In this document: positions 5,868 to 44,324 of the stretch, in pieces
How positions within the stretch are numbered: the first letter of the stretch is position 1
Layout of the letters: every line of letters begins with the position of its first letter
NCBI GenBank assembly: GCA_937893795.1
Contig: CALCTH010000562.1
Location: forward strand, 1 to 55,519
Source of the DNA: an uncultured Myxococcales bacterium
GTDB lineage: Bacteria > Myxococcota_A > Polyangia > Polyangiales > Houyiibacteriaceae
Direction: 5' to 3'
DNA: 55,519 bases
Notes under the pieces: model-generated
What the model was told of the DNA's origin: nothing
The model's database searches: none
Seen by the model: only the letters and a program-made list of their open reading frames with translations
Position numbers and translations under genes: made by a program

Positions 5868-6353
5868 GTGAGCGCCGACGACGAGCACGCCTTCGAGGCC
5901 GCCATCTCCTTCGATGAAGGGCAGGAGAAGGGCTACATGAAGCACTTCGTGCCGGTCCCGCCCGGCGTTGCCGAGGCGCTGGGAAGCGCCGGCGTCGAGC
6001 GCATCGAGGGTCAGCTCGGGGCGATCCCCTTCCGTCGAAAGCTCATGCGCGCGACCGACGGGACGCCCTGCGTGAAGCTCGGCGAGGGCTGGCTCCGCGA
6101 CGCGGGTCTCGAGGTCGGGGACGTCGTCCGCGTCATCCTCTGGCCCGACCCGGACCCGGACCGCGTCGACGTTCCCGATGCGCTCGCCGAGGCCCTCGCG
6201 CGGGAGCCGGACGTCGCCGCGCACTGGGAGACGCTCACGCCGGGCAAACGCCGCACCCTCGCGTACGCGATCACCCGCGCCAAGCGGCGTTCCACGCAGG
6301 AAAAGCGCGCCGAAGCGCTCGTCGACGAGCTCCGCGACGCGATGCGCCGCTGA
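5868..6353 (+). CDS. DUF1905 / YdeI-OmpD-associated family protein
   Basis: AGLEVGDVVRV..PDPDPDRVDVPDALAEAL...WETLTPGKRR...ITRAKRRSTQEKR is the typical OmdA/YdeI C-terminus. GTG start at 5868. Confidence 0.85.
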   Translation: MSADDEHAFEAAISFDEGQEKGYMKHFVPVPPGVAEALGSAGVERIEGQLGAIPFRRKLMRATDGTPCVKLGEGWLRDAGLEVGDVVRVILWPDPDPDRVDVPDALAEALAREPDVAAHWETLTPGKRRTLAYAITRAKRRSTQEKRAEALVDELRDAMRR

Positions 6354-6394
6354 CGCTCTCGACGACTCGCGTTCACCCACCTAAAACGTTCGGT

Positions 6395-25532: not shown

Positions 25533-27779
25533 ATGGAGGGGACGGAGGCCATCCAGGAGGACGCACGACGCGCGTGGTCGCAGCAAGACACCGCGGCCGC
25601 CGCGCGCCTCGTCGCGTTTCTGGCCCGCCGCCGCGCGTCGGCCTCTCCGGAGCTCGTCGCCGCGGCGTGTCTGGGCGTCGCTCAGGTCGCCTGGTGGGCA
25701 CAGCAGGATCCAGAGCGCGCGCGGCGTTACGTCGACGCGGGCCTGGCGCGTTTGGACATCGACCTGGCCACCCTCGTCGGCCTTCGGCTCCTCAACTTCT
25801 CGGCGTTCTTGGCGAGCCAGCAAGGACGCATCCTCGAGGCGCTACCAGCGGTGCTCTCCGTGCGGCGCCTCGCGCCGGACGTGCCGGGCGCGGAGCGCGA
25901 GCTCCTCCAGGCGCAATACACGCTCGTCGCCATCCTCACCCATCTCGGCGCCCTCGACGAAGCGGAGGCGCTGCACCGCGAGCTCCGGGAGGAAGGAGGG
26001 GCGTTTGGCCCGGGCGAGACGGAGCACGCTATTCTGCTTCTTCGCCGCGGCGACGTCGACGCCGCGCGGGAGGTGGTGGCGCGCCTGCGTTCGACGCTGG
26101 AGGGCGGGCGGCCGGCCGCGCCCAAGGTGCTCTCCGTGCTGGACGCCTGGATCGCCCTCGCCGACGGGAAGCTCGAGGACGTCCTGGAGAAGGCCACCTA
26201 CGCCGTCGGCGTCCCGCCCGCCTGGCACCAGCTCGAGGTGGTCGCGCTCTGGCTTCGCGCGGAGGCGCACCTCGCCCTCGGCGACCCCGTGGCTGCGGAG
26301 GCCGATGCGCGAAAGGGCCTCGGTCACCTGCGCTACCCCGCCGGCGGCCTGGTTCATCGCGACCTGACCACGGTGCTCGTCCGTGCCCTCCACGGGCAGG
26401 GCCGTCACGATGACGTCATCGAGGAGGTGGCGCAGCGCACGAGCGCGCTCGGTGGGGCCGGGGAGCGCTTCGCCGTCGGGTTGCTGCGGATGGTGCGCGA
26501 CTTCGACCGGCAGCTCGAGCGGCTCCGCTACGTGGAGGTCGAGGCGCGTGCCCAGGCCCTCGCGCGCGTCAATCGGGAGCTCGAGGAGGCCCGCGATACG
26601 GCGGAGGCGGCTCTCGCCGCGCAGCGGGCGCTCCAAGAGCACCTCCAGCGCGCCGCCAAGCTCGAGGCCGTGGGTCAGCTCTCGGCTGGCCTCGCCCACG
26701 ACCTGAACAACTTCCTCACGACGGTCTACGGAAGCGCGGACGGCCTTCGGCTCCAGCTGGGAGAGGGCGGGCCCGCTGCGCCCTTTCTCGCCGAGCTCGA
26801 CACGGCGTCCGAGCGCGCGTCACGCCTGAGCCGTCGCCTCCTCGCGCTCACGCGGCGTCGCACCGACCCTGCGAGCACCGTCGCCATTCACACCGTCATG
26901 GAGCGCGTCGCCGAGCAGGCACGAGAGCGGCTCGGGCCCGAGGTGACCTTCGCCCTCGAGCTCGGTCCGCCCGCCGTCGCCCACATCGCTGCCGACGCCG
27001 TCGTGCAGGCCCTGATGAACCTCGTCGTCAACGCCCAGGAGGCCATCGAGGGGGAGGGGCGCGTGACGCTGCGGCAGGAGCTCGGCCTCTGCCCCGAGGG
27101 GCGCCCGGCGATCCGCGTGGTGGTCGAGGACGATGGCGACGGGATGAGCGAGGCGGTGAGGCGCCGCGTCTTCGAGCCCTTCTTCAGCACCAAGGACCGG
27201 AAACCGGGGAGCGGCCTCGGTCTGACCATCTGCCAACAGGTAGCGGTGGAAGCCGGCGGCGTGGTCGACGTGCGCAGCGAGCCGGGACGAGGCTGCTCCG
27301 TCGCCCTCGTCCTTCCCCAGGTCGAGGGTGCCACCCGTCCGCGCGCGCCGAGCGACGTCGACGCCCCGTCGCCCCAGCCCAGGAGCTCCGGTGAGGTCAT
27401 CCTCCTGGTCGAGGACGAGCCCCTCGTTCGCCGCAGCACGGCCCGCTGCCTTCGGCGCCTCGGCTTCGAGGTGTGGACCGCCGAGAACGGGCGCGAGGGC
27501 ATGGAGCGCTTCGACGAAGGCCCCGAGCGGGTCACCGCCGTCATCAGCGACATCGTCATGCCGGAGGCGAGCGGGGTCGACGTCGCCCGCTACGTCGTCG
27601 AGCGTCACCCGCGCTGCCCCGTGCTCCTCATGTCCGGGTACGCCGAGGAGGAGGCCCTCGGGGATCTCCTCGCGCACCCGCGCGTGCGGTTCTTGGCCAA
27701 GCCCTTCCGCTATGCCGAGCTCGAGGAGTGCCTCGCCCAGGTGCTGGTGCTCGCGCGCGACCACGAGGCGGCGGGGTAG
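25533..27779 (+). CDS. Cytoplasmic hybrid histidine kinase/response regulator with helical TPR-like N-terminus
   Basis: AHDLNN H-box, NLVVNAQEA, DDGDGM, FEPFFSTK, GSGLGL; receiver LLVEDE...SDIVMP...LAKPF. Confidence 0.93.
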   Translation: MEGTEAIQEDARRAWSQQDTAAAARLVAFLARRRASASPELVAAACLGVAQVAWWAQQDPERARRYVDAGLARLDIDLATLVGLRLLNFSAFLASQQGRILEALPAVLSVRRLAPDVPGAERELLQAQYTLVAILTHLGALDEAEALHRELREEGGAFGPGETEHAILLLRRGDVDAAREVVARLRSTLEGGRPAAPKVLSVLDAWIALADGKLEDVLEKATYAVGVPPAWHQLEVVALWLRAEAHLALGDPVAAEADARKGLGHLRYPAGGLVHRDLTTVLVRALHGQGRHDDVIEEVAQRTSALGGAGERFAVGLLRMVRDFDRQLERLRYVEVEARAQALARVNRELEEARDTAEAALAAQRALQEHLQRAAKLEAVGQLSAGLAHDLNNFLTTVYGSADGLRLQLGEGGPAAPFLAELDTASERASRLSRRLLALTRRRTDPASTVAIHTVMERVAEQARERLGPEVTFALELGPPAVAHIAADAVVQALMNLVVNAQEAIEGEGRVTLRQELGLCPEGRPAIRVVVEDDGDGMSEAVRRRVFEPFFSTKDRKPGSGLGLTICQQVAVEAGGVVDVRSEPGRGCSVALVLPQVEGATRPRAPSDVDAPSPQPRSSGEVILLVEDEPLVRRSTARCLRRLGFEVWTAENGREGMERFDEGPERVTAVISDIVMPEASGVDVARYVVERHPRCPVLLMSGYAEEEALGDLLAHPRVRFLAKPFRYAELEECLAQVLVLARDHEAAG

Positions 27780-27845: not shown

Positions 27846-29909
27846 TCAGTCGTCGCGGCGCCGGCGCGCCAGCGCGAGCAGACCCAGGAAGAAGGCCCCG
27901 CCGCCGGTCCCGCCGGCCGCGCACCCGCCACCGCTGGAGGGCGGCGGCCCCACGGGCATCCCCGCGTCCATGGTGGGCGTCACGCCCATGTCGTCCGTGC
28001 CGGCGTCCGGCTCCGGACCCATCTCGGGCACGCCCGGGTCCGGCCGCATACGCACGAAGTCGGTGCAGTCGATGTTGCAGCCCCCGAAGACCATGCCGTT
28101 GGTGTCGCCGTCGTCGCAGGTCTCGGTGTCCGACACGAAGCCGTCGCCGCAGGTCGACGGCTGGCAGAGCGGGTTGCAGTCATCGGCCGCGTCGACGTTC
28201 CCGTCATCGCAACCCTCGCCGCTGTCTATCACGGCGTCGCCGCAGAAGGCGTCGCGGCAGATCGTGCGGCAGGCGTCGGGGTCGACGTCGCTGTTGTCCT
28301 CGCCGTCGTCGCACTCCTCGGCGCCCGTCACGATTCCGTCGCCACAGCGATCGGCGACGCAGGCGTCACACCCGTCGTCCGGGTCGTCGTTGCCGTCGTC
28401 GCAGTCCTCCACGCCGACGCGGACGATTCCGTCGCCGCAGATGGCGTCCGTGCAGGCGGCCGTGCAGCTGTCGCCGTCGAAGGAGTTGCCGTCGTCGCAC
28501 TCCTCGCCGAGCAGGCTCTGGAGGATTCCGTCGCCGCAGAAGGCGATCCGGCAGGCGTTCGAGCACATGTCCTCGTCGATGACGTTGCCGTCGTCGCACT
28601 CCTCACCGCTGTCGACGACCCCATCCGTGCAGAACCCGAAGAGGCAGCCACCGCCCGCCGTCGCGCGGCAGGCGTCGGGCTCCGTGTCGCTGTTGTCCGG
28701 GCCGTCGTCGCATTCCTCGGTGGTCGCGCGGCGGCCGTCGCCGCAGACCGGGAGCGTGCAGTCGTTGGCGCACTCGTCGAGGTCGAAGCCGTTGCCGTCG
28801 TCGCACTCCTCGACGCCGATGTTCTGGACGCCGTCGCCGCACACGTTGAGCCGGCAGAAATCGGTGCAGCCGTCCGTGGCGATGGTGTTCCCGTCGTCGC
28901 ACTCCTCGAACTCGTCGAGTTGCAGCACACCGTCGCCGCAGTTGGGCGGCGGCGTGAAGAGGAAGTTTACGATGCGGTTCTGGTCGATGGGAGCGATGCC
29001 CTCGAGGGCCCGCGGGGCCAGCAGCGGATCCGTGTAGCTGCGTGCCAGCGTCTCGGCGCTCGCGCTGTCGGCACCGGTGGGAAAGGAGAAGTGCAGGAAG
29101 ATGACCGTTTGCCCCGCCCGAATGGTGATCGGTTCATATTCCCATGCCAGCTCGTCCGCATCGAAGGTGCTGGAGGTCGCGAAGGGGTTGAAGGCAGCGT
29201 AGGCGACACGTCCGGGTGCCCCAGGGCCGGCCGTGACGTGGCCGATGTTCTGGTCCATAGCGGTCGTGCTCCGCGTCGTGAACCAGTTCACGCCCGCGCC
29301 GATGGTCCCTCCGAGGCTGCTCGCGCCGACCGTTTGAGTGGTGTCTCCGAGCTCGGCGAATCGTGTCGATGTCGTCCCGACGCGTACGCGAACTGTCTGG
29401 GGAGACCCCGAGGTGTTCTCGATAATCTCCATATAACGGATGAATGGCGTACCCGATGCAGGGATGAACGTGCGTCGCTGGGCCGTGATGCCACTGCTTC
29501 CGCCGGCCACGGGACGGCTGACGGTAATGATCTCATCCGTGCTCGTCGGGCCCATGACCCGCGATGCGAAGCGGCCGAAGGTCGCGCGGAAGTCCTCGGT
29601 GGTCTGATTGCAGGTCGTTCCCGGGAACCCTCCGCGGGCGACGTCCAGCACGCAGAGGTTCGGCCAGCTGGAATACGTTCCGCTGTAGGCCGTCAGAAAG
29701 GGCGACGTTCCCAGCGACGAGATCTCTCCGCCATCGTCGTCGTCCATGTTGAACGTGACGGTACCGCCACTCGAGAGGGTGCCCACACAGCTCGTGAACC
29801 CATCTGGGTTCTGGCACTGGGCGGCTGCGCCGGAGGGTGCGACGGCGAGCACGACGAGGGAGAAGGTGAGTGACGCCAATCGCCACCCCCATCGGGTAAG
29901 TAAAGTCAT
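27846..29909 (-). CDS. Surface protein: unknown N-terminal domain + ~9 Myxococcus Cys-rich (DUF4215) repeats + MYXO-CTERM
   Basis: Signal peptide, repeated CGDG...EECDDGN...C...C, tail GGGCAAGG...FFLGLLALARRRR. Confidence 0.88.
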   Translation of the reverse strand: MTLLTRWGWRLASLTFSLVVLAVAPSGAAAQCQNPDGFTSCVGTLSSGGTVTFNMDDDDGGEISSLGTSPFLTAYSGTYSSWPNLCVLDVARGGFPGTTCNQTTEDFRATFGRFASRVMGPTSTDEIITVSRPVAGGSSGITAQRRTFIPASGTPFIRYMEIIENTSGSPQTVRVRVGTTSTRFAELGDTTQTVGASSLGGTIGAGVNWFTTRSTTAMDQNIGHVTAGPGAPGRVAYAAFNPFATSSTFDADELAWEYEPITIRAGQTVIFLHFSFPTGADSASAETLARSYTDPLLAPRALEGIAPIDQNRIVNFLFTPPPNCGDGVLQLDEFEECDDGNTIATDGCTDFCRLNVCGDGVQNIGVEECDDGNGFDLDECANDCTLPVCGDGRRATTEECDDGPDNSDTEPDACRATAGGGCLFGFCTDGVVDSGEECDDGNVIDEDMCSNACRIAFCGDGILQSLLGEECDDGNSFDGDSCTAACTDAICGDGIVRVGVEDCDDGNDDPDDGCDACVADRCGDGIVTGAEECDDGEDNSDVDPDACRTICRDAFCGDAVIDSGEGCDDGNVDAADDCNPLCQPSTCGDGFVSDTETCDDGDTNGMVFGGCNIDCTDFVRMRPDPGVPEMGPEPDAGTDDMGVTPTMDAGMPVGPPPSSGGGCAAGGTGGGAFFLGLLALARRRRDD
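28070..28945 (-). repeat. About 9 tandem CGDG-x-EECDDG Cys-rich coding repeats (~31-38 aa)
   Basis: Visible in translation and as recurring ccgtcgtcgcactcctc in the DNA. Confidence 0.85.
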
Positions 29910-32295: not shown

Positions 32296-32543
32296 ATGAG
32301 CATCGTGGTCTTCTCACGCTTCGGGCTCACGCCCACGTCGAGAGATTCGGCGCTGAATCGCGAGGAACGCACGAACGAAGCGAAGGCTCTCTTCTGCGCG
32401 AGCTGGCGGTCGAGATCGGCCCGCGCGAAGCCGGGACCGCCGAAGAGCTGGCGGCTGCGGACTACGTCGAGGCGGAGCTCTTCGGCCTGGGCTACGCCTC
32501 GACGCACGCTGCCGGAGGGCGATACGGCTCAGTGTCGCGGTAG
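32296..32543 (+). pseudogene. N-terminal remnant of an M28-family aminopeptidase
   Basis: LRELAVEIGPREAGTAEELAAADYVEAELFGLGY matches the M28 N-terminal L...IGPR.AG..E..AA.Y....L...GY. It is out of frame with ATG 32296 and truncated at the convergent kinase gene. Confidence 0.6.
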
Positions 32544-34787
32544 CTCCGCGACGACGGAGGGCCCCGCCGCGAGGGCCCGCGTCTGGACGAGGGCCCTCAG
32601 CGCCGCCACCTCGATGGGCTTCTCCAGAAGCGGATTCGGGAGAGTCTCCATGTCTTCCCGCGTCTCGCCGGCGAAGGTCCCTCCGCTGATGAAGACCACG
32701 GAGTTGGCCGGCGTACGCGCGTCCTCGGTCTCCGCGAGCCGCCGGAGCAGCTGCGGTCCAGTCATCTCCGGCATCATCACGTCGCAGAGCACCACGTCGA
32801 ACGCCGTGTCGCGGCAGCGCCGGAGGCCCTCGCGCGGGTCCGTCGTCGTCTCGACCTCGTGGTCCCGGAGCGCGCGCGCGAGGGTACGTCCGACCACCGC
32901 GTCGTCGTCGACGACGAGCACGCGAGCCCGGACCATTTGCGGGGCGCCCGAATCCTGGACGCGGCGCTCCTCGGGCGTCGCCACGGCCCGAGGCAATCGA
33001 ACCGTGAAGCGCGTCCCGGCGCCCACCGTCGACGTCACGCTGATGCTCCCTTCGAGGGCACGCACGATGCCGTGTGCGATGGAAAGGCCGAGCCCGGTCC
33101 CCTCGCCTTGAGGCTTCGTCGTGAAGAAGGGGTCGAACACCTGAGGAAGATGCTCCGGCGCAATGCCGGATCCCGTGTCCTCGACCTCGAGGGAGACCAT
33201 GCGACCCTGGGCGCGTGCCCGGACGATGACCTGCTCGTTCTCGGCGCCCCCGGGCGCGAGGGCCTGGGCCGCGTTGAGCAGAAGGTTGAGCAGCACCTGT
33301 CCGAGGCGACCCTCGTCCGCCTGGACGGCGACGCGCTCCGGCACGTCGATCACCAGCGAAGCCCGGTGCCGGAGCTCGTGGCGCGCGAGCTGTGCCGTCG
33401 CCTTCACCAGCGGCAGCAGAGCGACCGGCGCAAGCGTCGTGGGGGGCTCCCGCGTGAGCGTCTTGAGATCGCGGACCGTGTCCTGCACGCGGGCGCAGCC
33501 CTCACGCATCTCCTGGGCGAGCGTCAGGAGCTCTGCGCGGAGCTCCGACGACATCGAGGCGTCGTCCTCCAGGCGCTCGAGGAGGAGGAAGGCGTTGGTC
33601 GCGACCGCCGAAAGCGGGTTGTTGATTTCGTGCGCGGCCCCGGCGGCGAGCGTTCCGAGCGACGCGAGGCGGTCCGCCTGCGCGAGCTTTGCCTCCGCAC
33701 GTTCCCGCTCGCGGAGGTCGAGGACCGTCAGTACCGCGCCGGGCGCATCGCCTAGCCGATTCGCCACCTCCACGGGGATGCTTCGGCCGGCTGCGCGAGC
33801 GATGACGCGGGTGGGCTCGATCACGTCGCCGAGACGATCGAAGAGCGCCGGGTCCTCGAAGAACTCGCCGAGCGGCCGGCCGAGCGTCTCGGCGCGCGGC
33901 GTGCCGAAGAGCGTCTCCCAGGCCGGGTTCACGTCCACGACCACGCCATCTCGGTGCAGGGCGATGCCCTCGCGCGTCGCCTCGGCGAGCAGCTGGTAGC
34001 GCGTTTGGCCGGCCCGGGCCTCCACGGTCCTCTCGTCCACCGTCTCCTCGAGTCGCTCGAAGAGGGCGGTGACACGCAGATCCTGCGACCAGCTGATCAG
34101 GAGACCGGTGATCGCGAAGGCCCAGTGGAACACCCGAATGCTCGAGCTCCATCCCATGTGAACCGTGATGTCATTGGCGACCGCGACGATCATCAACACC
34201 GCGAGCACCCGGATCTCGCGGCGCGTCACGGGCAGGGGTACGTCGGAGAGACCCTCGGAGCCCCGAAGGACCCGGACGACGACGACCACCGTGCCGGCGG
34301 CCATCGGCGCGGCGATCCAGATCAAGAGCGGTCCCGGCTCGGCGCTCCACATCAGTCGCCCCAAGGCGTCGACGCGCTGGATGGCGGTGTCCGAGGTGAC
34401 CAGGTCCGTTCCGACGATCAACGCGACGACACCGAGAACGAAGGAGCCATAGCGCCTCAGCCACGCCGGCAGTCCGCGCAGCCCTCCCAGCGCACGGGCG
34501 ATACCCAAGGCCACGAACGTCATCGACACGCCGGCGGCGAAGCGAAGCCGGCCTCCGAGCACGGCGGCTTCGGGTGCGTCTGCCGTCAGCTGGAGCAGGC
34601 GTCCCGCGATGTAGACGAGCGCCGCCGCGTTCCACAACGTGGCCCAGAGGTTCGGCTCGGTCAGCGGTCCGCGCCGACCAAGAACGAGCGACTTGAGGGC
34701 CAGCACGCCCGTCGCGCCCATCAGCGCGAGGAGTGCCCACACCTCCGCCTGGGTGTTCCAGCCGATCGCATACCTCCCCGTGGCCAT
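32529..34787 (-). CDS. Hybrid histidine kinase: HisKA_7TM-like sensor, PAS, HisKA/HATPase, receiver
   Basis: About 7 TM helices, PAS (DVNPAWETLFG), AHEINNPL, NLLLNAAQA, DTGSGI, FDPFFTTK, GTGLGL, VLVVDDD...CDVMMP...LEKP. Confidence 0.93.
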   Translation of the reverse strand: MATGRYAIGWNTQAEVWALLALMGATGVLALKSLVLGRRGPLTEPNLWATLWNAAALVYIAGRLLQLTADAPEAAVLGGRLRFAAGVSMTFVALGIARALGGLRGLPAWLRRYGSFVLGVVALIVGTDLVTSDTAIQRVDALGRLMWSAEPGPLLIWIAAPMAAGTVVVVVRVLRGSEGLSDVPLPVTRREIRVLAVLMIVAVANDITVHMGWSSSIRVFHWAFAITGLLISWSQDLRVTALFERLEETVDERTVEARAGQTRYQLLAEATREGIALHRDGVVVDVNPAWETLFGTPRAETLGRPLGEFFEDPALFDRLGDVIEPTRVIARAAGRSIPVEVANRLGDAPGAVLTVLDLRERERAEAKLAQADRLASLGTLAAGAAHEINNPLSAVATNAFLLLERLEDDASMSSELRAELLTLAQEMREGCARVQDTVRDLKTLTREPPTTLAPVALLPLVKATAQLARHELRHRASLVIDVPERVAVQADEGRLGQVLLNLLLNAAQALAPGGAENEQVIVRARAQGRMVSLEVEDTGSGIAPEHLPQVFDPFFTTKPQGEGTGLGLSIAHGIVRALEGSISVTSTVGAGTRFTVRLPRAVATPEERRVQDSGAPQMVRARVLVVDDDAVVGRTLARALRDHEVETTTDPREGLRRCRDTAFDVVLCDVMMPEMTGPQLLRRLAETEDARTPANSVVFISGGTFAGETREDMETLPNPLLEKPIEVAALRALVQTRALAAGPSVVAELPRH

Positions 34788-34943
34788 CCGCCCGCCACTC
34801 GTTTCCCGTTATAACGACAAAGCGCAGACTCTCACCGGCGGAATGGTCGGAGCATTCTGACGGCCTCCCCGAGTCGGCGTCGCCACGCACCCGTGCCGCC
34901 CATGGCTTGTGAGGAGTGCGCGCTTCGCGCTTTGCTAGTCCTC

Positions 34944-37136
34944 ATGAGGGGTTTGGGGGGACTGGTCGCGCTCTCGTTGCTCGTCGCGTCGTCGGCGCTC
35001 GCGAGACCTGACTACGGAGATCGTCTCCCCAACGGGAGTCGCGTCGGCTGCACGGCGTGCCATCTCACATCCGGCGGAGGCGACGAGTGCGGTGAGCCGC
35101 CGTGCCTGAACCCCTTCGGCGAGGACGTGAGGCCCTTCGTCTTCGGCGGGACGCTGGGACCCGTGTGGGAGGGCAGCACGCTGGCCTCCCAAGACCCCGA
35201 CGGCGACGGCTACACCAGCGGCTTCGAGTTGGGCGACCCCGCCGGTACGTGGGTGACGGGCGCGCCCGATCCCACCGATGGGCCCATCCGTTCGCCCGGC
35301 CTCGACGACGGCGTCGACGGCGAGGATGTCGATGAGTGCGCCTTCGGAGTGGACGACTGCGTGGCCCTCGCGACGTGCACGGACCTCGTGGAGCCCATGC
35401 CGGCTCGGCGCCCGAGCTTTCGCTGCACCTGCCCCAACGGACGCGTCGGGGACGGCACCACGGGCGGTACGGGGTGCGTCGACGCCGGTGGCTTCGATGG
35501 CTACCTCGGCGCGCGTCCCGTGTTCGACGGCCAAATCGTCGACGTCGACACCACGCAGAGCACGTCGGAAGTCGTGGAGTCCTCCTGCGGCGCGACCGGC
35601 CGCGACGTCTGGCTTCACTACCACTTCGAATGCCCGAGCGAGCTGAGCGTCGAGGTGGTGGAGGCCGACTTCCAGGTGTCCGTCGCGCTCTTCGACGACG
35701 ACTCGCTCGGCGATCCCACGCTGCTCCCCACGGAGCTCGCCGAAGTCGCCTGTCGGAACGGTGAAGGAACGCTCTCACGCCGGTGGGCGCGGGCCGGTGC
35801 GGTCATCCGCGTGTCTGGGCAGAGCGGCGAGGTGGGGCTGGCGCGCCTCCGCGTCTCGTGCGCGAGCCTCTCGAGCCATTGCAGCTCGGCCGGCGCCCTC
35901 GTCGACGGCACCGTCGAGTACGTGAGCGACAACCCCTTCGTGGGTCGCGACCCTCTGTCCGACGATCCCTGCCCCATCGATGGCGACAAGTGGTGGACGT
36001 ATACGGTCCCCTGCACGGGCACAGTCACCTTCGGACTCACCGAATACACGCCCACGATCTGCGAGCGCGAAGACGTCGGGGTCGCGGTGTACCGAGAAGC
36101 GGAGTGTGAGACGCAGGACACGCCGCTCGCCTGCAACGTCGTCCCCGTGGACTGCGACGAGCCCCTGCCCGAGGTGCGCGTCTTCGCGCTCGCGGGGGAG
36201 GAGTTTCTGCTGCGGGCGGGCGGCACGCTCCAGCACGTCGGGTCGGTGAACGTCTCCTGCGCGGAGGCGACCACGTGCACGGACTTCGACGACCAGTGCG
36301 ACGCCCGCGCGCTCTGCATCACGGACAACATGGGCGCGCTGACCTGCCAGTGCCCCGTCGGCTTCTCCGGCGATGGGCTCGCGCGGGGCACCGGCTGCAA
36401 CTTCGACGGCCCGTGCGTGGAGGCCGGCCTCACCTGCGGCGAGCACGCCCGGTGCCTGGCCGTAGACGGGGGCGGTCGTTGCCTCTGCGGTCCGGGCTAC
36501 GTGGATGGTGGCCTGACCTGCCTCGACGAGCGCGAGTGCTCTTCGGGCGTGGGCACCGCTGCCTGCAGCTCCAACGTCGCCAGCGCTCGTACGGTCTGCC
36601 TCGAGCGCGAAGGCAGCTTCGGCTGCGCATGCGAGGCTGGCTTCAGCATCGACACGGAGGCCTCGACGTTCCGCTGCGTCCGGCGCTGCGGCGACGGTCA
36701 GCGCGCGCCGCCGGAGCTCTGCGACGATGGCAACACGGTCGACGGCGATGGCTGCAGCGCCAGCTGCGACGAAGAGGTCGGCTTCCGCTGCTTCGAGACG
36801 GGTGACACCGCGAGCCGATGTGCGCCCACCTGCGGCGACGGCCTCATCGACGCCGAAGCCGGCGAGTCATGCGATGACGGTGCCCGCAACTCGGACACGC
36901 GCCCGAACGCATGCCGCACCGACTGCACGCTCCCCGTGTGCGGCGACGGGATCGTGGACACGGACTTCGACGAGGTCTGCGAGCCGAACCCCGACGAGCC
37001 GAGCTTCGACTGCAACCGGTTCTGTAAGCGGGGCTTCGGCTGCGCGACGTCGGGAAGCCCGTCCAGCGCAGCCTTCGTGACGGGCTTGCTCGTGCTGGCG
37101 CTCGTGCGTTTCCGGAGACGCCACGCGAGCGCATGA
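34944..37136 (+). CDS. Surface protein: temptin-like CxxCH domain, Ca-binding EGF repeats, beta-sandwich domains, DUF4215 repeats, MYXO-CTERM-like tail
   Basis: Signal peptide; GCTACH; LNPFGED...DPDGDGYTSGFELGDP; DVDEC EGF units; CGDG...LCDDGN; tail GCATSG...LLVLALVRFRRR. Confidence 0.85.
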   Translation: MRGLGGLVALSLLVASSALARPDYGDRLPNGSRVGCTACHLTSGGGDECGEPPCLNPFGEDVRPFVFGGTLGPVWEGSTLASQDPDGDGYTSGFELGDPAGTWVTGAPDPTDGPIRSPGLDDGVDGEDVDECAFGVDDCVALATCTDLVEPMPARRPSFRCTCPNGRVGDGTTGGTGCVDAGGFDGYLGARPVFDGQIVDVDTTQSTSEVVESSCGATGRDVWLHYHFECPSELSVEVVEADFQVSVALFDDDSLGDPTLLPTELAEVACRNGEGTLSRRWARAGAVIRVSGQSGEVGLARLRVSCASLSSHCSSAGALVDGTVEYVSDNPFVGRDPLSDDPCPIDGDKWWTYTVPCTGTVTFGLTEYTPTICEREDVGVAVYREAECETQDTPLACNVVPVDCDEPLPEVRVFALAGEEFLLRAGGTLQHVGSVNVSCAEATTCTDFDDQCDARALCITDNMGALTCQCPVGFSGDGLARGTGCNFDGPCVEAGLTCGEHARCLAVDGGGRCLCGPGYVDGGLTCLDERECSSGVGTAACSSNVASARTVCLEREGSFGCACEAGFSIDTEASTFRCVRRCGDGQRAPPELCDDGNTVDGDGCSASCDEEVGFRCFETGDTASRCAPTCGDGLIDAEAGESCDDGARNSDTRPNACRTDCTLPVCGDGIVDTDFDEVCEPNPDEPSFDCNRFCKRGFGCATSGSPSSAAFVTGLLVLALVRFRRRHASA

Positions 37137-37212
37137 CGCGGGTCGCCCGTGAGGCGAGGATCGCGAAAGGAACGGGTCGTGAGCGGTGATATCGTGGCGC
37201 CGGGTCCTCGTC

Positions 37213-37899
37213 ATGCCCTGGTTCGCCGACCTCGCGCCGCTCACCTATTTCACCCGGCAACCCGGAAGCCTGCGTGCCATCGGGTGGCTGAACGCGAACC
37301 ACGGCTATGCGAAGGGCCCGGTCGCGGAGGAGGACTTCGCGCGGCTCTGCGAGCTGCTCGTCGACCCGTGGGAGCCCGGGGGCTTCACCGGCTCCCATGC
37401 GTGCGACCTCTGCCGCTTCACCTCGGGGCCCACTAACGTCCACTTCCGGAAGAGCAGCGTCAGCGTCGGCCACGCCAACCTCTTCCTGCCTGCGGGCGAC
37501 GTGCTCTTCGTCGCGCCTTCGCTCGTGGTTCACTACATCGACGCGCACGAGTATCAGCCGCCGCCGGTCTTCTGGGAGGCGGTCCGGGCGTGCCCGCCGA
37601 TGCGTAGCCTGGCCTACAAGAAGGCGCTGCTGGCGGCCGGAGGCGGGGCGTTGCTGGAGCACGAAGCGCGGGAGGGTCCGGTGCCGAGTCGCTGGTCCGA
37701 GCGGCCCAAGAACGTGCGTCTTCCGCCGGGTGCGTTGGAGGCTCCCCGGCCGGCGACGTGGCGGGTCATGCGCATCGACGACAACGGCAACCAGTTCGAG
37801 GTCGCGCGCTTCGCCACCGAGCGCGAGGCCGACGACGCGGCCATGCGCTTCGAGGCCCGCGGTCACAAGCAGAGCTACTGGGTCGAAGGAGTGGGCTGA
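37213..37899 (+). CDS. Two-domain hypothetical protein: HxCxxC-type domain fused to a small SPOR-like domain
   Basis: FADLAP..Y, AIGWL, GSHACDLC, FVAPSLVVHYIDAHEYQPP; C-terminal WRVMRIDDNGNQFEV..F..E.EA....FEARGHKQSYWVE. Confidence 0.75.
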   Translation: MPWFADLAPLTYFTRQPGSLRAIGWLNANHGYAKGPVAEEDFARLCELLVDPWEPGGFTGSHACDLCRFTSGPTNVHFRKSSVSVGHANLFLPAGDVLFVAPSLVVHYIDAHEYQPPPVFWEAVRACPPMRSLAYKKALLAAGGGALLEHEAREGPVPSRWSERPKNVRLPPGALEAPRPATWRVMRIDDNGNQFEVARFATEREADDAAMRFEARGHKQSYWVEGVG

Positions 37900-41274: not shown

Positions 41275-42783
41275 GTGGTGTACGGTGCCCGTGTGCGCTT
41301 CTTATCTTGCTTGATTTTGGGGGTGACGTGCGCGTGCCCCGCGTCCCTCGAGGGCGTCCCGCCGGATGCAGGTGGTGACGGAGCGGCCGACGCCAGCGCG
41401 GACGAAGGCTGGGACCTCGCGCCGGTCGTCGACGCGGCGACTTTGGGGCCCACCCTAATCGTCGAGCTGCGCGACCGCTTGGACCGACCCGTCGCCGGAC
41501 ATCCGGTCGCCGTGAGGCTCGGAGATCTCGGCGACGTTTGGCGAGGGGAGTCCGACGGCGCGGGGGAGGCCCGGTTCCTGGGCCTCTCGCTCGATGGTGC
41601 GGCCCTTCTTTCGCTCACGACCTACGAGCCGGAAGGCATCCCCGTTGGGGAGGCCGCCGAAGTTGGCGGCGTTTGGAGCGAGCCGCTCTTCTTGGCGGGC
41701 TCGCCGGAGGGTGACGACTGGCGTGTCCGCCTCGTCGTGGACGACTACTTCGCTCGCCCGACGGTGCTTCGCGGGCGCGTGCGCGGTGTGTCGGGGTTGC
41801 CACTGCCCCAGTTTCGGTTGACCGGGGGCGTTCTCTCGGGTGGCGCGGTGGACACCGGCCCGGACGGCACCGCCTTCAGCGTGGCCGCCGTGCAATGGAC
41901 CACGACGCTCGCACCCTGGATGGTGGTGAGCTTCACCGCCGAGGACCGCTTCGTGACTACCGCCGTACCCTGGCCTGCGGGCCTCCCCAGCGAACCGCAA
42001 ATGGTCGACATCCAGCTCCCGGACGCGGAGATGACGCCGGCCGAAGTCTCCTTCGAGACGCCGCGGATCGAGGAGGCCAACTGCGCCGTCACCGTGCGCG
42101 CTGCCGGTGTGGGGCTCCTGGGGCTGAGTCGGTACGCGCCATGCGACGGAGCCCTTCGGACGCTGACCTGGGTCCCCTTGGCGGGCACGCGCGACGGCAC
42201 GCTCTTCGTGCAAGGGGCCACCGGCGAGCCCCCCCGGCGGCGGACGCAGCGTGGCCTACCAGACGAAGTGTTCGCGGAGCTGCCGATGAGTCCCGAGCTG
42301 CCCTCGACGCCCCGTCTTGCGGGCAGCGAGTTCACCACCGCCGCGGAGCTTGCGGCAAGCCTGTCCACGGTCGAGGCGTCCGTAGTTCGAAGCCTCCGGG
42401 TGCGCGCGCCGCTCGTCACGCTCGACGTCCGTATCGGGTCTTCGCCCGGCCGCGTTCCGCCGCTCCCGGGTGAGCTCCGGTGGGCGCAGGTTCGGGAGCT
42501 CGCCACGAGCGACGCCTTCTTCGTCGCGGTGAGGGACACCAAGGTCTTCGCGGGCCCACCGGAAGCACCCACCCACTTCGCCTTCGCCGAGGACGGCGGC
42601 AGGAGCCTGTTGTCGGTCGACGAACGTGACGCCCGGACCCCCCGTCCCTCGCCCATACTCGCGCGCCACGAGTCGCATCGAGTGGCCCGGCGCCCTGGTC
42701 CGACTAGCGTCCTACCTGGGGCGACGAACGGGCCGACAGGGCTCCACGCCCAGCGTGCCGCGAGGCACGGGACTTACTTATGA
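41275..42783 (+). CDS. Uncharacterised lipoprotein (Ig-like; C-terminus possibly run-on)
   Basis: Hydrophobic signal ending VTCAC, DAG linker, VELRDRLDRPVAGHPV...SDGAGEARF. The last ~50 aa look non-coding-like. Confidence 0.65.
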   Translation: MVYGARVRFLSCLILGVTCACPASLEGVPPDAGGDGAADASADEGWDLAPVVDAATLGPTLIVELRDRLDRPVAGHPVAVRLGDLGDVWRGESDGAGEARFLGLSLDGAALLSLTTYEPEGIPVGEAAEVGGVWSEPLFLAGSPEGDDWRVRLVVDDYFARPTVLRGRVRGVSGLPLPQFRLTGGVLSGGAVDTGPDGTAFSVAAVQWTTTLAPWMVVSFTAEDRFVTTAVPWPAGLPSEPQMVDIQLPDAEMTPAEVSFETPRIEEANCAVTVRAAGVGLLGLSRYAPCDGALRTLTWVPLAGTRDGTLFVQGATGEPPRRRTQRGLPDEVFAELPMSPELPSTPRLAGSEFTTAAELAASLSTVEASVVRSLRVRAPLVTLDVRIGSSPGRVPPLPGELRWAQVRELATSDAFFVAVRDTKVFAGPPEAPTHFAFAEDGGRSLLSVDERDARTPRPSPILARHESHRVARRPGPTSVLPGATNGPTGLHAQRAARHGTYL

Positions 42784-44324
42784 CGAAGACACGACTTCTC
42801 TTGGTGGCCGCGCTCGCCGTGGCCGCCGTCGCCTGCGGCGACGATGACGCGTCCACGGACACCGGGGCCCTCGATGCCGGCACGGAGTGCCCCGCGGGTC
42901 AGCTGCTGTGCGGGAGGGAGTGCGTCGACACGGGCGTCGACCCCTCGAACTGCGGCACCTGTGGCGCGGTATGCGGGGCCGGTGAGCTTTGCAGCGCCGG
43001 AACGTGCGCCCTCTCCTGCGGCGGAGGCACCACCCGGTGCGGCGAGCTCTGCGCCGACACGCAGCTCGACCCGGCGAACTGCGGCGGCTGCGCCGTGGAC
43101 TGCGCAGCCGGTGAGCTGTGCTCCATGGGCACCTGCGGCCTGAGCTGCGTCGGCGGCACGACGCGCTGCGGCGACGCCTGCGTCGACACCGCGAGCGATC
43201 CGGTGAACTGCGGCGGCTGCGGCGCCGCCTGTGCGCCCGGCGAGCTCTGCAGCGCGGGCGCCTGCTCACTGAGCTGCGGCGGAGGCAGCACCCAATGCGG
43301 CGACCGCTGCGTCGATACCATGAGCGATCCGGCGAACTGCGGGGGCTGCGACGCGGCCTGCCCGCGCGGGGAGCTCTGCCTGGAGGGCACCTGCGCCCAA
43401 GCGTGCCCGGCGCCGAACGTGGCGTGCGGCGACCGGTGCGTGGACACGGGCTCGAACCCGGACTTCTGCGGCGCCTGCGACGTGGCCTGTGCCGCCGGTG
43501 AGTTCTGCACGGACGGCGTCTGCGCGACCGAGTGCCCGGTACCGAACGTGGTCTGCGGTGACCGGTGCGTGGACACGGCTTCGAACCCGGACTTCTGCGG
43601 CGCTTGCGACGTTGCCTGCGGGTCCACGGAAGCGTGTTTGGCCGGGCGCTGTCTCCCGCTCGAGCAGCTCGACGTCCTCGTCTACTCCGACGACGAGACG
43701 CGCTTCGACGCCACCACGCATCCCGTCGTCGTCGCGGCGGCGGCCGTCGGCTTCGTCGATGTGACCCTCATCTTCGACGACGAGTTCGCCTTCGAAGCCG
43801 CGCGTCTGGCCGGAGACGTGGACCTGCTGGTCGTCGACGCGAGCCTCGCCATCCTCCCGGACGAGGTGCTGGCCGCCGCCGAGGCGCGCGCCCGTGCGGA
43901 GCTTCCGCTGGTCTTCAGCTACTGGAACCTCGACAACACGGACGCGGCGGAGACGTCCCTCCGCGCCGCGCTCGGCGTCACCACGCGCAGCTACAGCGTG
44001 GCCGAAGGCGTCTTCGTCACGGCGGGCGCGGACCCGAACCTCTTCACTTTCGAGGAGACGGTCACCTCGCCGATGGCGGCCACCGACCGCGTCGTCGACG
44101 ACGGCGACTATCTCGATCTCACGGGCGCGGGCGACGTGCTCTTCTCCGCAGGCGGCGCGGCCGGCAGCGACAACCTCGGCGTGCTCACCAACCGTCGCAC
44201 GTCCCTCGTGCTCGGCTTCCTCCTCGCGAACCTCGACGACAGCGACGTCGACGCGGACGGCATCGACGACGTCGACGAGCTGATGACCAACATCCTCGCG
44301 TGGTTCGCGGCGGGCCGGCCGTGA
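42780..44324 (+). CDS. Lipoprotein with six Stig1/MXAN_6577-like Cys-rich repeats and an acidic C-terminal domain
   Basis: Lipobox AVAC and repeated CVDT..DP.NCG.C...C..GELC..G.C. Confidence 0.88.
   Translation: MTKTRLLLVAALAVAAVACGDDDASTDTGALDAGTECPAGQLLCGRECVDTGVDPSNCGTCGAVCGAGELCSAGTCALSCGGGTTRCGELCADTQLDPANCGGCAVDCAAGELCSMGTCGLSCVGGTTRCGDACVDTASDPVNCGGCGAACAPGELCSAGACSLSCGGGSTQCGDRCVDTMSDPANCGGCDAACPRGELCLEGTCAQACPAPNVACGDRCVDTGSNPDFCGACDVACAAGEFCTDGVCATECPVPNVVCGDRCVDTASNPDFCGACDVACGSTEACLAGRCLPLEQLDVLVYSDDETRFDATTHPVVVAAAAVGFVDVTLIFDDEFAFEAARLAGDVDLLVVDASLAILPDEVLAAAEARARAELPLVFSYWNLDNTDAAETSLRAALGVTTRSYSVAEGVFVTAGADPNLFTFEETVTSPMAATDRVVDDGDYLDLTGAGDVLFSAGGAAGSDNLGVLTNRRTSLVLGFLLANLDDSDVDADGIDDVDELMTNILAWFAAGRP
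42921..43655 (+). repeat. Six tandem ~129-bp (43-aa) Cys-rich coding repeats
   Basis: Units start at 42921, 43050 and onward. Confidence 0.85.

Follow-up and report, generated by a model that had tools for sequence, protein, structure and literature searches.

The Temptin_C domain family (Pfam PF24784) takes in the animal temptin pheromone, the N-terminal module of lophotrochozoan DBH-like copper monooxygenases and the oomycete 'Temptin Cys/Cys disulfide domain' proteins. According to a previous study (PMC2762978), temptin replaces the DOMON domain in lophotrochozoan DBH-like proteins, eukaryotic temptin relatives are fused to copper monooxygenases, and the cysteine residues of the LC...DPCC pattern form the mapped temptin disulfides. 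DOMON in DBH-like monooxygenases and cytochrome b5 in desaturases are haem electron donors, and their likeness to temptin is one of position only. To our knowledge, no eukaryotic temptin is known to bind haem, and haem c cannot be attached in the eukaryotic secretory pathway; a literature search for work linking temptin to haem or cytochromes found none. In proteins exported by the Sec pathway, an invariant CxxCH motif is the standard signature of haem c, and the CxxC of such motifs usually lies in a short helix with the histidine residue following. In cytochrome f, the motif is found ~15–20 residues from the mature N-terminus, and neither methionine nor histidine serves as the distal ligand.

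In the present study we analysed a gene from an uncultured Myxococcales bacterium, contained in a stretch of DNA of 55,519 nucleotides (hereafter the window). Its product is predicted from the sequence to be a surface protein, the outer tip of which probably carries a covalent haem and a calcium ion.

RESULTS

Gene and domain architecture

The gene occupies positions 34944..37136 of the forward strand and, from the ORF list and its translation, encodes 730 amino acids starting at ATG 34944. Two alternative in-frame starts are present (GTG 34893 and ATG 34902), and the translation given in the preliminary description is that of the ORF 34893..37136 (+). ATG 34944 is the likelier start, as it yields the 730-residue protein on record (P0002). 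The N-terminus reads as a putative Sec-type signal peptide, MRGLGGLVALSLLVASSALA (34944..35003, +), with cleavage expected after ALA, followed from 35004 by the mature N-terminus RPDYGDRLPNG. A hydrophobic core ending 10–34 residues ahead of the first cysteine residue was also found in 143 of 149 relatives, the remaining six being N-terminally truncated gene calls.

The mature protein begins with a Temptin_C-type domain (35004..35300, +), the putative monohaem c and calcium-binding head. Pfam PF24784 matched residues 37–129 over profile positions 3–90 of 98 (E 2.9e-9), with a score of 37.7 bits against a gathering cut-off of 27, and 41.4 bits in the genome search. All of the core motifs (PNG, His, NxFG, Trp and DxDGDG..NG.ELGDP..W..G) are in the window domain, except for a serine in place of asparagine in the loop, and the order after CTACH up to 35300 is CGEPPC, LNPFGEDV, W, DPDGDGYTSGFELGDP, W, G and SPG. 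Comparison of the bacterial with the eukaryote-type profile gave a probability of 99.9% (E 5e-37). As a lead only, an Atlas structural comparison gave TM scores of 0.74–0.75 to mollusc clusters of Temptin_C plus copper monooxygenase. Temptin_C, in its bacterial form, thus makes up the ~100 N-terminal residues. The homology to temptin proposed in the preliminary description was supported, and its reading of the motif string at the mature N-terminus and of the EGF and DUF4215 repeats was confirmed.

The head is followed by a calcium-binding-EGF-like module (D-V-D-E-C ...; approximately 35325..35483, +), read from the sequence and matched by Pfam EGF_CA in four stretches (E 3e-4, under the family cut-off), and then by two cysteine-containing modules of ~130 amino acids each (approximately 35484..36275, +), for which the Pfam scan gave only a weak GBD_T9SS_assoc match (E 0.048). 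EGF_3 repeats (approximately 36276..36617, +; Pfam E 1e-12, three stretches, the best at 462–496) precede DUF4215/myxo cysteine-rich acidic repeats (approximately 36624..36992, +; Pfam DUF4215 E 2.1e-10, three stretches), where the NCBIfam model of the myxo cysteine-rich repeat, TIGR02232, scored 54.4 bits. A second DUF4215 protein is encoded within the window at 27849..29909. The C-terminus is a MYXO-CTERM-like tail (37038..37121, +), GCATSGSPSSAAFVTGLLVLALVRFRRRHASA, in which the GC pair, a serine-rich stretch, the hydrophobic helix and the arginine cluster (RFRRR) are all present; the scores of TIGR03901 (MYXO-CTERM; 18.4 bits against a cut-off of 20) and GC_trans_RRR (14.9 against 15.85) were slightly under their cut-offs. 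The Pfam and NCBIfam results thus support the earlier picture of a head borne distally on a stalk of repeats with a MYXO-CTERM-like tail.

Extent of the family

An exhaustive HMMER scan detected 761 representative relatives at E<=1e-3 (clusters at 50% identity) from more than ten phyla; a word-index homologue search with the domain returned the window's own protein only. Family columns and motif counts were taken from the best 150 of the 761 representatives, which gave 149 aligned bacterial domains. The genome of the window contains three copies of the domain family. In two genomes of the same genus (G001 and G002), the matches resembled only one paralogue, C309, and the window gene was not found. 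Across the family the domain almost always stands directly after the signal peptide, and its partners are Ig, PKD, EGF, CHRD, T9SS tails and MYXO-CTERM, with cupredoxin domains in two relatives; the simplest members are small stand-alone proteins. The relatives carry source names such as 'hypothetical protein', 'CHRD domain-containing' and 'cysteine-rich repeat protein'.

Conservation of the CxxCH motif

The sequence C-T-A-C-H (35049..35063, +), a putative haem c attachment motif with its histidine as candidate proximal ligand, lies 15 residues past the predicted cleavage site and is the sole CxxCH in the protein. The preliminary description had placed the conserved temptin histidine inside this motif and proposed a survey of its retention. 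The motif was kept in 149 of the best 150 representatives, the only exception being an oomycete protein, and each of C, C and H was 100% conserved in the 149 aligned bacterial domains. All 80 of the loci drawn from named genomes of more than ten phyla also have it (Ignavibacteriota, Myxococcota, Verrucomicrobiota, Latescibacterota, Gemmatimonadota, Planctomycetota, Bacteroidota, Omnitrophota, Chloroflexota and others), as do ten of ten loci from relatives and each of the three family copies in the genome of the window. Since the motif falls in a column of the alignment that is invariant throughout the family, its presence is more than chance: CxxCH is a family rule in bacteria and not an accident of the window protein, and the placing of the histidine within it holds throughout the bacterial family. 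In an AlphaFold2 model of the domain (mean pLDDT 86.2), the CxxC is located in a short helix (residues 11–18) with the histidine just after it. PF01578, the cytochrome c assembly family, was matched three times in the genome at scores exceeding the cut-off (best 127.5 bits; Ccm or Ccs type).

Other cysteine residues, calcium loop and axial ligands

The window domain has a further pair of cysteine residues in a C-G-E-P-P-C insert (35088..35105, +), a probable self-contained disulfide loop. At the position of this insert, cysteine was absent from 126 relatives, occurred exactly twice in 14 and never once (ten were unparsed). As these residues are optional and always paired, they are most likely bonded to each other; disulfide formation between the CxxC and CGEPPC, the scenario named beforehand as speaking against haem, is therefore unlikely. 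No cysteine beyond the CxxC was present in 99 of the 149 bacterial domains.

A 12-residue EF-hand-like loop is found at 35193..35228 (+), where DPDGDGYTSGFE fits DxDxDGxxxxxE. The family pattern is DxDxDGxxNxxE, with serine replacing the usual asparagine at position 9 in the window, and its columns are highly conserved (D 99%, D 99%, D 100%, G 95%, N 99% and E 100%), which supports the earlier assignment of a putative calcium site. A weak local match to the EF-hand protein polcalcin in a PDB sequence search was not significant (E=1).

No conserved column of methionine or of a second histidine was detected in the 149 aligned bacterial domains, and 55 of them, like the window domain, contain neither. 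The window domain thus lacks the methionine or histidine distal ligand of a low-spin electron carrier, an absence that is compatible with a five-coordinate or unusually ligated haem.

Searches against known cytochromes and structures

Searches with the domain model gave no row of six at E<=0.001 against the PDB (Foldseek), none of 48,161 chains at Z>=2 (VIA-align) and no match in BFVD. Because the domain is small, loop-rich and cofactor-dependent, this result is not evidence of a new fold. None of the cytochrome models of Pfam and NCBIfam matched the window domain (Pfam: none at E<=1). With the family profile, the PDB sequences returned cytochrome c-554 only, which was not significant (E 0.16); FlgD matches in this search stemmed from the tails of other alignment rows and were discarded.

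The NCBIfam family NF041762, 'GEGP motif-containing diheme protein', was matched in its first-haem region (positions ~47–112 of 359, from the CxxCH through the DxDGDG loop) by 41 of the 150 relatives, and two paralogues in the window's own genome also matched. The model has two haem motifs over 359 positions and a cut-off of 300 bits, whereas the relatives score at most 35 bits; the window domain, from a protein with one CxxCH, gave no match at E<=0.01. A search for a paper on NF041762 found none.

Gene neighbourhoods

At three loci from three phyla (L030, L067 and L027), a small temptin-type gene stands in an operon directly upstream of a Rieske gene, which is followed by a cytochrome b gene. 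At L030 and L027 the next gene encodes a c7-type (pentahaem) cytochrome c with five CxxCH motifs; at L067 the gene that comes next lies on the opposite strand and matched no family. The start and stop codons of the temptin-type and Rieske genes overlap at L027, where cytochrome b is 59% identical to that of L030 (BLASTP, E 7e-148). This context occurred in only three of the 80 loci, all of FCB-group phyla and of a subfamily other than that of the window protein. Ferrochelatase was found near the family gene at four loci. CxxCH was present in 24 of 407 neighbouring ORFs, spread over 21 of the 80 loci, and six of these 24 (at five loci) have 5–13 motifs each. The window has no other CxxCH gene in frames of at least 150 codons, bar one likely spurious edge frame. 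A UPF0093 (HemJ-like) neighbour scored 29.9 against a Pfam cut-off of 34.2 and was dropped as evidence. Across the family as a whole no neighbourhood is conserved; the largest cluster of neighbours was found at 11 of the 80 loci, all Melioribacteraceae-type.

Relation to eukaryotic temptins

A homologue search passed 869 proteins, the best 120 of which were all of oomycete type. The eukaryote-type set consisted of oomycete/stramenopile and metagenomic proteins; no animal temptin was retrieved, and the animal comparison thus rests on the Pfam model, the Atlas cluster labels and PMC2762978. At the site of the CxxCH, [LIV]GH was present in 147 of 149 eukaryote-type temptins, the histidine thus being kept, and the histidine columns of the two profiles align. 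The oomycete temptin-type proteins follow the pattern that the preliminary description gives for Aplysia temptin, with [AV][LIV]GH at this site. The DPCC cysteine residues are present in 144 of the 149, whereas the bacterial members have CxxCH without LC...DPCC; the window domain lacks these residues and reads LA..QDPDGDG and DPAGTW. Three sequences combine CxxCH with at least one eukaryote-type cysteine (L083 and the metagenomic P0208 and P0210), and two of them, P0210 and L083, have CxxCH plus the full LC/IC...DPCC set.

In a moderately supported tree that was rooted arbitrarily and contained no animal sequences, the eukaryote-type sequences formed one group nested among the bacterial ones, and the bacterial neighbours of this group belonged, with the same moderate support and arbitrary root, to a subfamily other than the window's. 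For the earlier suggestion of a possible relation to the origin of the animal domain, the tree thus gives a nesting of eukaryote-type among bacterial sequences, but not a place next to the window's own subfamily. A covalent haem and a calcium ion in the bacterial domain, which we consider probable, would suggest a small bacterial cytochrome as the ancestor of the eukaryotic temptin domain. An Atlas cluster in which Temptin_C is joined to a lipid desaturase in Haptophyta provides a further lead only.

DISCUSSION

We consider it reasonably likely that the window head is an uncharacterised monohaem c and calcium-binding redox module displayed on a stalk. The temptin-type domain would be exported by the Sec pathway, and a cytochrome c maturation system would then attach one haem covalently to the Cys-x-x-Cys, with the following histidine as proximal iron ligand; the EF-hand-like DxDxDGxxNxxE loop would hold a calcium ion. 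As there is no conserved methionine or histidine, the sixth iron position would be open, weakly ligated or occupied by an unusual ligand. We take the ancestral job of the domain to be extracytoplasmic electron transfer, because small stand-alone members exist and some are encoded in Rieske–cytochrome b–multihaem c operons. In the window protein, the head is borne by a long stalk of cysteine-rich EGF and DUF4215 repeats that ends in a MYXO-CTERM-like anchor, and this position makes a surface-displayed redox or small-ligand-binding head, and not a wire to the cell, the most likely role.

It is unlikely, in our view, that no haem is bound and that the CxxC and histidine form a redox-active disulfide or a Cys2His (copper or zinc) site in a calcium-stabilized extracellular domain, possibly for copper handling. 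Such a site would agree with the lack of a conserved distal ligand and of a fold or profile match to any cytochrome, with the Cu-binding_MopE metal-binding motifs fused to four of the 150 relatives, and with the copper monooxygenases joined to eukaryotic relatives (Atlas clusters and PMC2762978). In addition, at six Latescibacterota or Gemmatimonadota loci a small relative adjoins the gene for an HMA-domain P-type ATPase, lying immediately upstream at five of the six, and RND pumps are found near some of these. However, the invariant CxxCH of a Sec-exported protein, the Rieske/cytochrome b/multihaem operons, the nearby ferrochelatase, the cupredoxin fusions and the likeness to a curated 'diheme' family all argue for haem. 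The histidine outlasts both cysteine residues in eukaryotes, which is not how a single metal site made up of all three would behave, and we know of no periplasmic copper motif with Cys2His at the CxxCH spacing.

A mainly structural haem in a head that acts as a calcium-dependent, adhesive protein- or ligand-binding module is also unlikely. Animal temptin is reportedly 'the glue' of a pheromone complex, in the title of Cummins et al. 2007, the partner domains of the family (Ig, PKD, EGF, CHRD, T9SS tails and MYXO-CTERM) are adhesin-like, and a head at the distal end of so long a stalk would be too far from the membrane for a one-haem electron relay; yet the smallest members have no adhesive parts and stand in respiratory-type operons. 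The window gene also adjoins a divergently transcribed 7TM-PAS hybrid histidine kinase gene (32529..34787, −) across a gap of ~115–155 bp, and a haem with its sixth position open would lend itself to the sensing of gases or ligands. That the head is an extracellular sensor paired with this kinase is nevertheless very improbable, as kinase-core-like neighbours occurred at only four of the 80 loci, with just a receiver domain at two more, and both their position and their strand varied. These genomes are rich in histidine kinases (the window encodes another hybrid kinase at 25533..27779), and G001 and G002 showed matches to the paralogue type alone; the pairing is therefore unsupported.

The redox module that we favour may belong to a wider picture, which we put forward tentatively and consider less likely than not. 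Temptin_C would be an unrecognised class of c-type cytochrome with one haem, an EF-hand-like calcium site and no methionine or histidine distal ligand, always at the mature N-terminus, a position that may let the free amine ligate the iron, as in cytochrome f, if the sixth site is not open. Eukaryotic temptins would descend from a Myxococcota-like bacterial subfamily, having lost covalent attachment, gained disulfides and kept the axial histidine. The molluscan pheromone, the DOMON-replacing module of DBH-like copper monooxygenases, the lipid-desaturase fusion and a large oomycete expansion would all be descendants, and eukaryotic temptins may still donate electrons by way of haem b or a metal.

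Should the bacterial domain prove to be a cytochrome, the biochemistry of temptin would have a place to start from; so far the domain has been known only as an animal pheromone or 'glue' and, without explanation, at the N-terminus of copper monooxygenases. Bacterial respiratory and surface biology would gain a monohaem family that is widespread but unannotated, and the family would provide a clear case of a cofactor-binding fold swapping its cofactor for disulfides on the move to eukaryotes.

Among known systems, the Temptin_C family matches over the whole domain and shares with the bacterial form PNG, the histidine, NxFG, W, DSDGDGxTNGxELGDP, W, G and PG, and in eukaryotes, as in bacteria, the domain directly follows the signal peptide; the two differ in the exchange of CxxCH for [LIV]GH plus LC...DPCC. 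The MYXO-CTERM-anchored cysteine-rich surface proteins of Myxococcota have in common with the window protein the DUF4215/TIGR02232 repeats, the EGF modules and the GC–hydrophobic–RRR tail, but the window protein is set apart by its haem-motif head and by a MYXO-CTERM score slightly below the cut-off. The likeness to cytochromes c1 and f, small monohaem cytochromes of Rieske/cytochrome b complexes, lies in a Sec-exported domain of ~100 amino acids with one CxxCH near the mature N-terminus, and in the Rieske and cytochrome b genes alongside which small family members are encoded. The distance of the motif from the mature N-terminus (~15–20 residues) also resembles that in cytochrome f, as does the lack of an evident methionine or histidine distal ligand. 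Unlike cytochromes c1 and f, the window domain has no sequence or structure match to solved cytochromes, adds an EF-hand-like calcium loop and stands at the head of a surface stalk, outside a respiratory complex.

The Temptin_C-type head of P0002

The gene lies in an ORF at 34893..37136 (+; 747 codons counted from the first GTG), and the protein on record (P0002, 730 aa) starts at the ATG at 34944. In both start forms a signal-peptide-like hydrophobic stretch ends in ALA, after which the mature chain starts as RPDYGDRLPNG at 35004 (+), and the CTACH sequence is encoded at 35049..35063 (+). Pfam analysis placed Temptin_C (PF24784) at residues 37–129 (E 2.9e-9, 37.7 bits compared with a cut-off of 27), followed by EGF_3 and DUF4215 in three stretches each, and the NCBIfam model of the myxobacterial cysteine-rich acidic repeat scored 54.4 bits. 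The MYXO-CTERM model scored 18.4 bits, slightly under its cut-off of 20, and the C-terminal tail (GC, a hydrophobic helix and RFRRR) has the form expected of MYXO-CTERM; a stalk of ~600 residues separates the head from this anchor. Since the ORF, mature N-terminus, CTACH, domain matches and tail were all as the preliminary description had them, its observation of a CxxCH-bearing head followed by repeats and an anchor is real and correctly placed. The window has a G+C content of ~71%, and Myxococcota are among the named relatives of the family.

Retention of CxxCH in bacteria

With the 102-aa domain as query, HMMER was run exhaustively against 1.84 billion cluster representatives and gave 761 relatives at E<=0.001, 30 of them at E<=1e-10. 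All of the best 150 of the 761 matched Temptin_C, and 149 contained CxxCH (once in 146, twice in two and five times in one); the sole exception, P0141 of the oomycete Lagenidium giganteum, carries A-I-G-H at the motif position in both of its tandem domains. A one-genome-per-species scan gave 606 pattern matches and 253 confirmed relatives, and the best 80 loci, all with CxxCH in the domain, came from Ignavibacteriota (including the cultured Melioribacter and Rosettibacter), Myxococcota, Verrucomicrobiota, Latescibacterota, Gemmatimonadota, Planctomycetota, Bacteroidota, Omnitrophota, Chloroflexota, Marinimicrobia and others. The survey of bacterial homologues that the preliminary description had named thus found the motif kept.

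The family was detected in 15 of 31 genomes related to that of the window, among them 13 of the 18 others that belong to its taxonomic family, usually heading open frames of 750–950 codons, and CxxCH was present in 10/10 loci fetched from related genomes. These genes often stand in tandem pairs, ~800 codons long and 2–3 kb apart, as on contigs G007:C33 (28000 and 30336), G009:C53 (19796 and 22159), G014:C11 (200348 and 202739) and G005:C7 (82342 and 84954). Two further copies, both with CxxCH, were found in the window's own genome: G000:C707:3911-4114 (L093) heads a very long open frame of 1556 codons, and its Ca loop, DTDGDGPSNSSE, is degenerate; the copy at G000:C309:136-354 (L001) is truncated by the contig end.

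Conserved residues and predicted structure

Alignment of 149 bacterial domains showed that both cysteine residues and the histidine of CxxCH are 100% conserved, together with P-N-G ahead of the motif, (R/L)-N-x-F-G behind it and one tryptophan. The Asp, Gly, Asn and Glu positions of the 12-residue loop D-S-D-G-D-G-x-T-N-G-x-E, the canonical EF-hand pattern, are 95–100% conserved; in the window's loop serine replaces asparagine at position 9. No conserved methionine or second histidine column was found in this alignment: 55 of the 149 domains, and likewise the window's domain, have neither residue outside the motif. The CxxC cysteines are the only ones in 99/149 domains. Between CxxCH and NxFG there were no cysteines in 126 relatives, exactly two in 14 and never one (ten could not be parsed), and therefore the CGEPPC-type insert supplies its own partner cysteine. 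The disulfide between CxxC and CGEPPC that the preliminary description had considered as a refutation is thus unlikely on the evidence of the alignment. A signal-peptide-like hydrophobic core ends 10–34 residues ahead of the first cysteine in 143/149 relatives, the other six being truncated gene calls; thus the domain is almost always at the mature N-terminus.

An AlphaFold2 model of the window's domain, built with 90 aligned sequences (mean pLDDT 86.2, pTM 0.79), contained short helices (residues 4–7, 11–18, 37–47, 58–61 and 72–75), with CxxC inside helix 11–18, the histidine at 20 and the half with the Ca loop at pLDDT >90. Foldseek against the PDB listed six rows, none at E<=0.001, VIA-align found no match at Z>=2 among 48161 representative chains, a BFVD search with the model found no match, and PDB sequence searches with the domain gave no significant match.

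Redox and metal genes beside the relatives

No family-wide conserved neighbour was found in the 80 loci. CxxCH occurred in 24 of 407 neighbouring ORFs, in 21/80 loci (raw counts, related loci not being independent), and six neighbouring ORFs in five loci had 5–13 motifs. The informative subfamily comprises small proteins (~147–152 aa, range 140–200 aa) with a conserved C-terminal tail, T-A-V-E-x-T/S-T/S-W-x-Q-I-K-x-L, which has no assigned family and, from its sequence, may be an amphipathic anchor or sorting signal (L024, L027, L030, L043–L046, L049–L051, L058, L063 and L067). In three phyla of the FCB group the order temptin-type gene, Rieske, cytochrome b was found on one strand: L030 (5902..8835, Gemmatimonadetes), L027 (5908..8772, Handelsmanbacteria) and L067 (5914..8061, Latescibacterota). 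Cytochrome b is followed by a pentahaem c7-type cytochrome (five CxxCH) in L030 and L027, and by an opposite-strand gene without a family match in L067. The L027 and L030 cytochromes b are 59% identical (E 7e-148, from translation), and in L027 the temptin-type stop codon overlaps the Rieske start (5908..6366 and 6363..6824). The small temptin-type protein may act in a Rieske/cytochrome b complex as a subunit, or accept its electrons, in a way not yet described.

Eight Latescibacterota loci (L024, L043, L045, L046, L049, L051, L058 and L062) have, immediately upstream on the opposite strand, a divergently transcribed gene for a soluble 606-aa protein with an N-terminal Rieske domain and ~480 residues without a family, and with no predicted membrane helix or CxxCH. 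One to three genes upstream in L014, L027, L044 and L067 lies ferrochelatase. An HMA P-type ATPase gene stands behind the small temptin-type gene on the same strand in six loci (directly in five), in some with an AcrB-type RND pump nearby. In 11 Melioribacteraceae-type loci (L009, L012, L019, L020, L021, L023, L029, L041, L047, L052 and L054) a T9SS-tailed temptin-type gene precedes a same-strand gene for a conserved ~370-aa protein without a Pfam family. This protein contains CxxCH exactly once and may be a further unannotated cytochrome.

Partner domains among the 150 relatives were T9SS tails (23), FlgD_ig (17), Big_7 (13), bacterial TSP3 (10), CHRD (7) and MopE (4), besides EGF, Ig and PKD; two relatives have amicyanin- or plastocyanin-type cupredoxin domains. 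The source names of the relatives were uninformative.

Eukaryote-type relatives and descent

Searches started from an oomycete protein or from a profile built on its relatives yielded 149 distinct proteins. Phytophthora, Pythium, Saprolegnia and Aphanomyces account for most of them and Aureococcus for one; many have the UniRef name 'Temptin Cys/Cys disulfide domain-containing protein'. [LIV]-G-H replaces CxxCH in 147 and D-P-C-C is present in 144. The other two, P0208 and P0210, contain CxxCH and are metagenomic, with bacterial-looking signal peptides. P0210 and L083 (G021:C89), the latter a 185-aa ORF with a MYXO-CTERM-like tail in a genome related to that of the window at order level, combine CxxCH with cysteines of the eukaryote type (C..DSDGDGQTNG.ELGDPCC.W), and in sequence both appear intermediate between bacterial and eukaryotic members. 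Oomycetes have a large Temptin_C expansion (P0153–P0301; in the size range 55–289 aa, 869 proteins passed E<=0.001); some members are annotated 'Cleavage induced conserved protein', and one Phytophthora contig carries several.

The bacterial and eukaryote-type profiles aligned over the whole domain, histidine on histidine (probability 99.9%, E 5e-37), which together with the PF24784 match bears out the homology to temptin proposed in the preliminary description. In a quick maximum-likelihood tree (215 rows, 114 columns, arbitrary root, moderate support), the 70 eukaryote-type rows formed one group (SH-aLRT 92) nested in a bacterial subclade of small proteins with MYXO-CTERM tails, L083 and P0210 among them (support 80–85). 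As to the suggested link to the origin of the animal domain, with this root and no animal rows the eukaryote-type group falls among bacteria, and the window's domain is in a different subclade. Atlas clusters of mollusc Temptin_C with Cu2_monooxygen (TM 0.74–0.75 to the window's domain) and haptophyte Lipid_desat with Temptin_C are leads only. One report (PMC2762978) describes two mapped disulfides in Aplysia temptin, and temptin in place of the N-terminal DOMON domain in lophotrochozoan DBH-like monooxygenases.

A probable c-type cytochrome module

Taken together, the results are most simply accounted for if Temptin_C in bacteria is a cytochrome module of the c type. This would explain the invariant CxxCH in Sec-exported proteins of more than ten phyla, the joint loss of both cysteines in eukaryotes with new disulfides and a retained histidine, the operons shared with genes for Rieske, cytochrome b and multihaem c proteins, the cupredoxin fusions and the likeness to a 'diheme' family. 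Eukaryotes are not known to produce secreted proteins with haem c. Three matches to PF01578, a cytochrome c assembly family, are present in the genome of the window. We consider attachment of haem to the bacterial CxxCH likely. Lacking a Met/His ligand and a fold match, the module would be a new kind of cytochrome. A haem-free metal or disulfide site is an unlikely alternative.

The window's protein would hold a haem-bearing head on its long stalk, and one haem so placed could hardly relay electrons to the cell. The best guess, reasonably probable as a whole statement, is a head displayed at the surface with a redox or ligand-binding role. A mainly adhesive role appears rather improbable. The gene adjoins an opposite-strand gene for a 7TM-PAS hybrid histidine kinase (32529..34787), and another hybrid kinase of this type of enzyme is encoded at 25533..27779 (+); a sensor paired with the adjacent kinase is nevertheless very improbable, as kinase-like neighbours occur in 4/80 loci and a receiver domain only in two more. 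The other neighbours are a DUF7919 protein (37186..37899, +) and a GNAT acetyltransferase. Elsewhere the window encodes a DUF4215-rich protein (27849..29909, -; E 3.6e-38) and a protein with six cysteine-rich repeats like those of Stig1 (42780..44321, +), whose family takes its name from a protein of the plant stigma. Among ORFs of >=150 codons in the window, no other contained CxxCH except one edge frame that is probably spurious.

That Pfam Temptin_C includes bacterial proteins is already known, and automatic names mirror this. A literature search for temptin or the Temptin_C domain with haem or cytochromes found no linking paper, the 'heme' query being swamped by 'tempting', nor was a paper found on the GEGP family.

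If c-type cytochrome modules, these domains could have a five-coordinate or unusually ligated haem iron. In cytochrome f the N-terminal amine ligates the haem iron and, because the Temptin_C domain is constantly at the mature N-terminus, this amine is by analogy a candidate sixth ligand. The NCBIfam family NF041762 ('GEGP motif-containing diheme protein') was matched by 41 of the best 150 of the 761 relatives and not by the window's domain; on closer checking, 18/40 small relatives matched profile positions ~45–120 of 359 at <=35 bits, far under the cut-off of 300. Therefore this curated, haem-named family shares the module, although the proteins described here do not belong to it.
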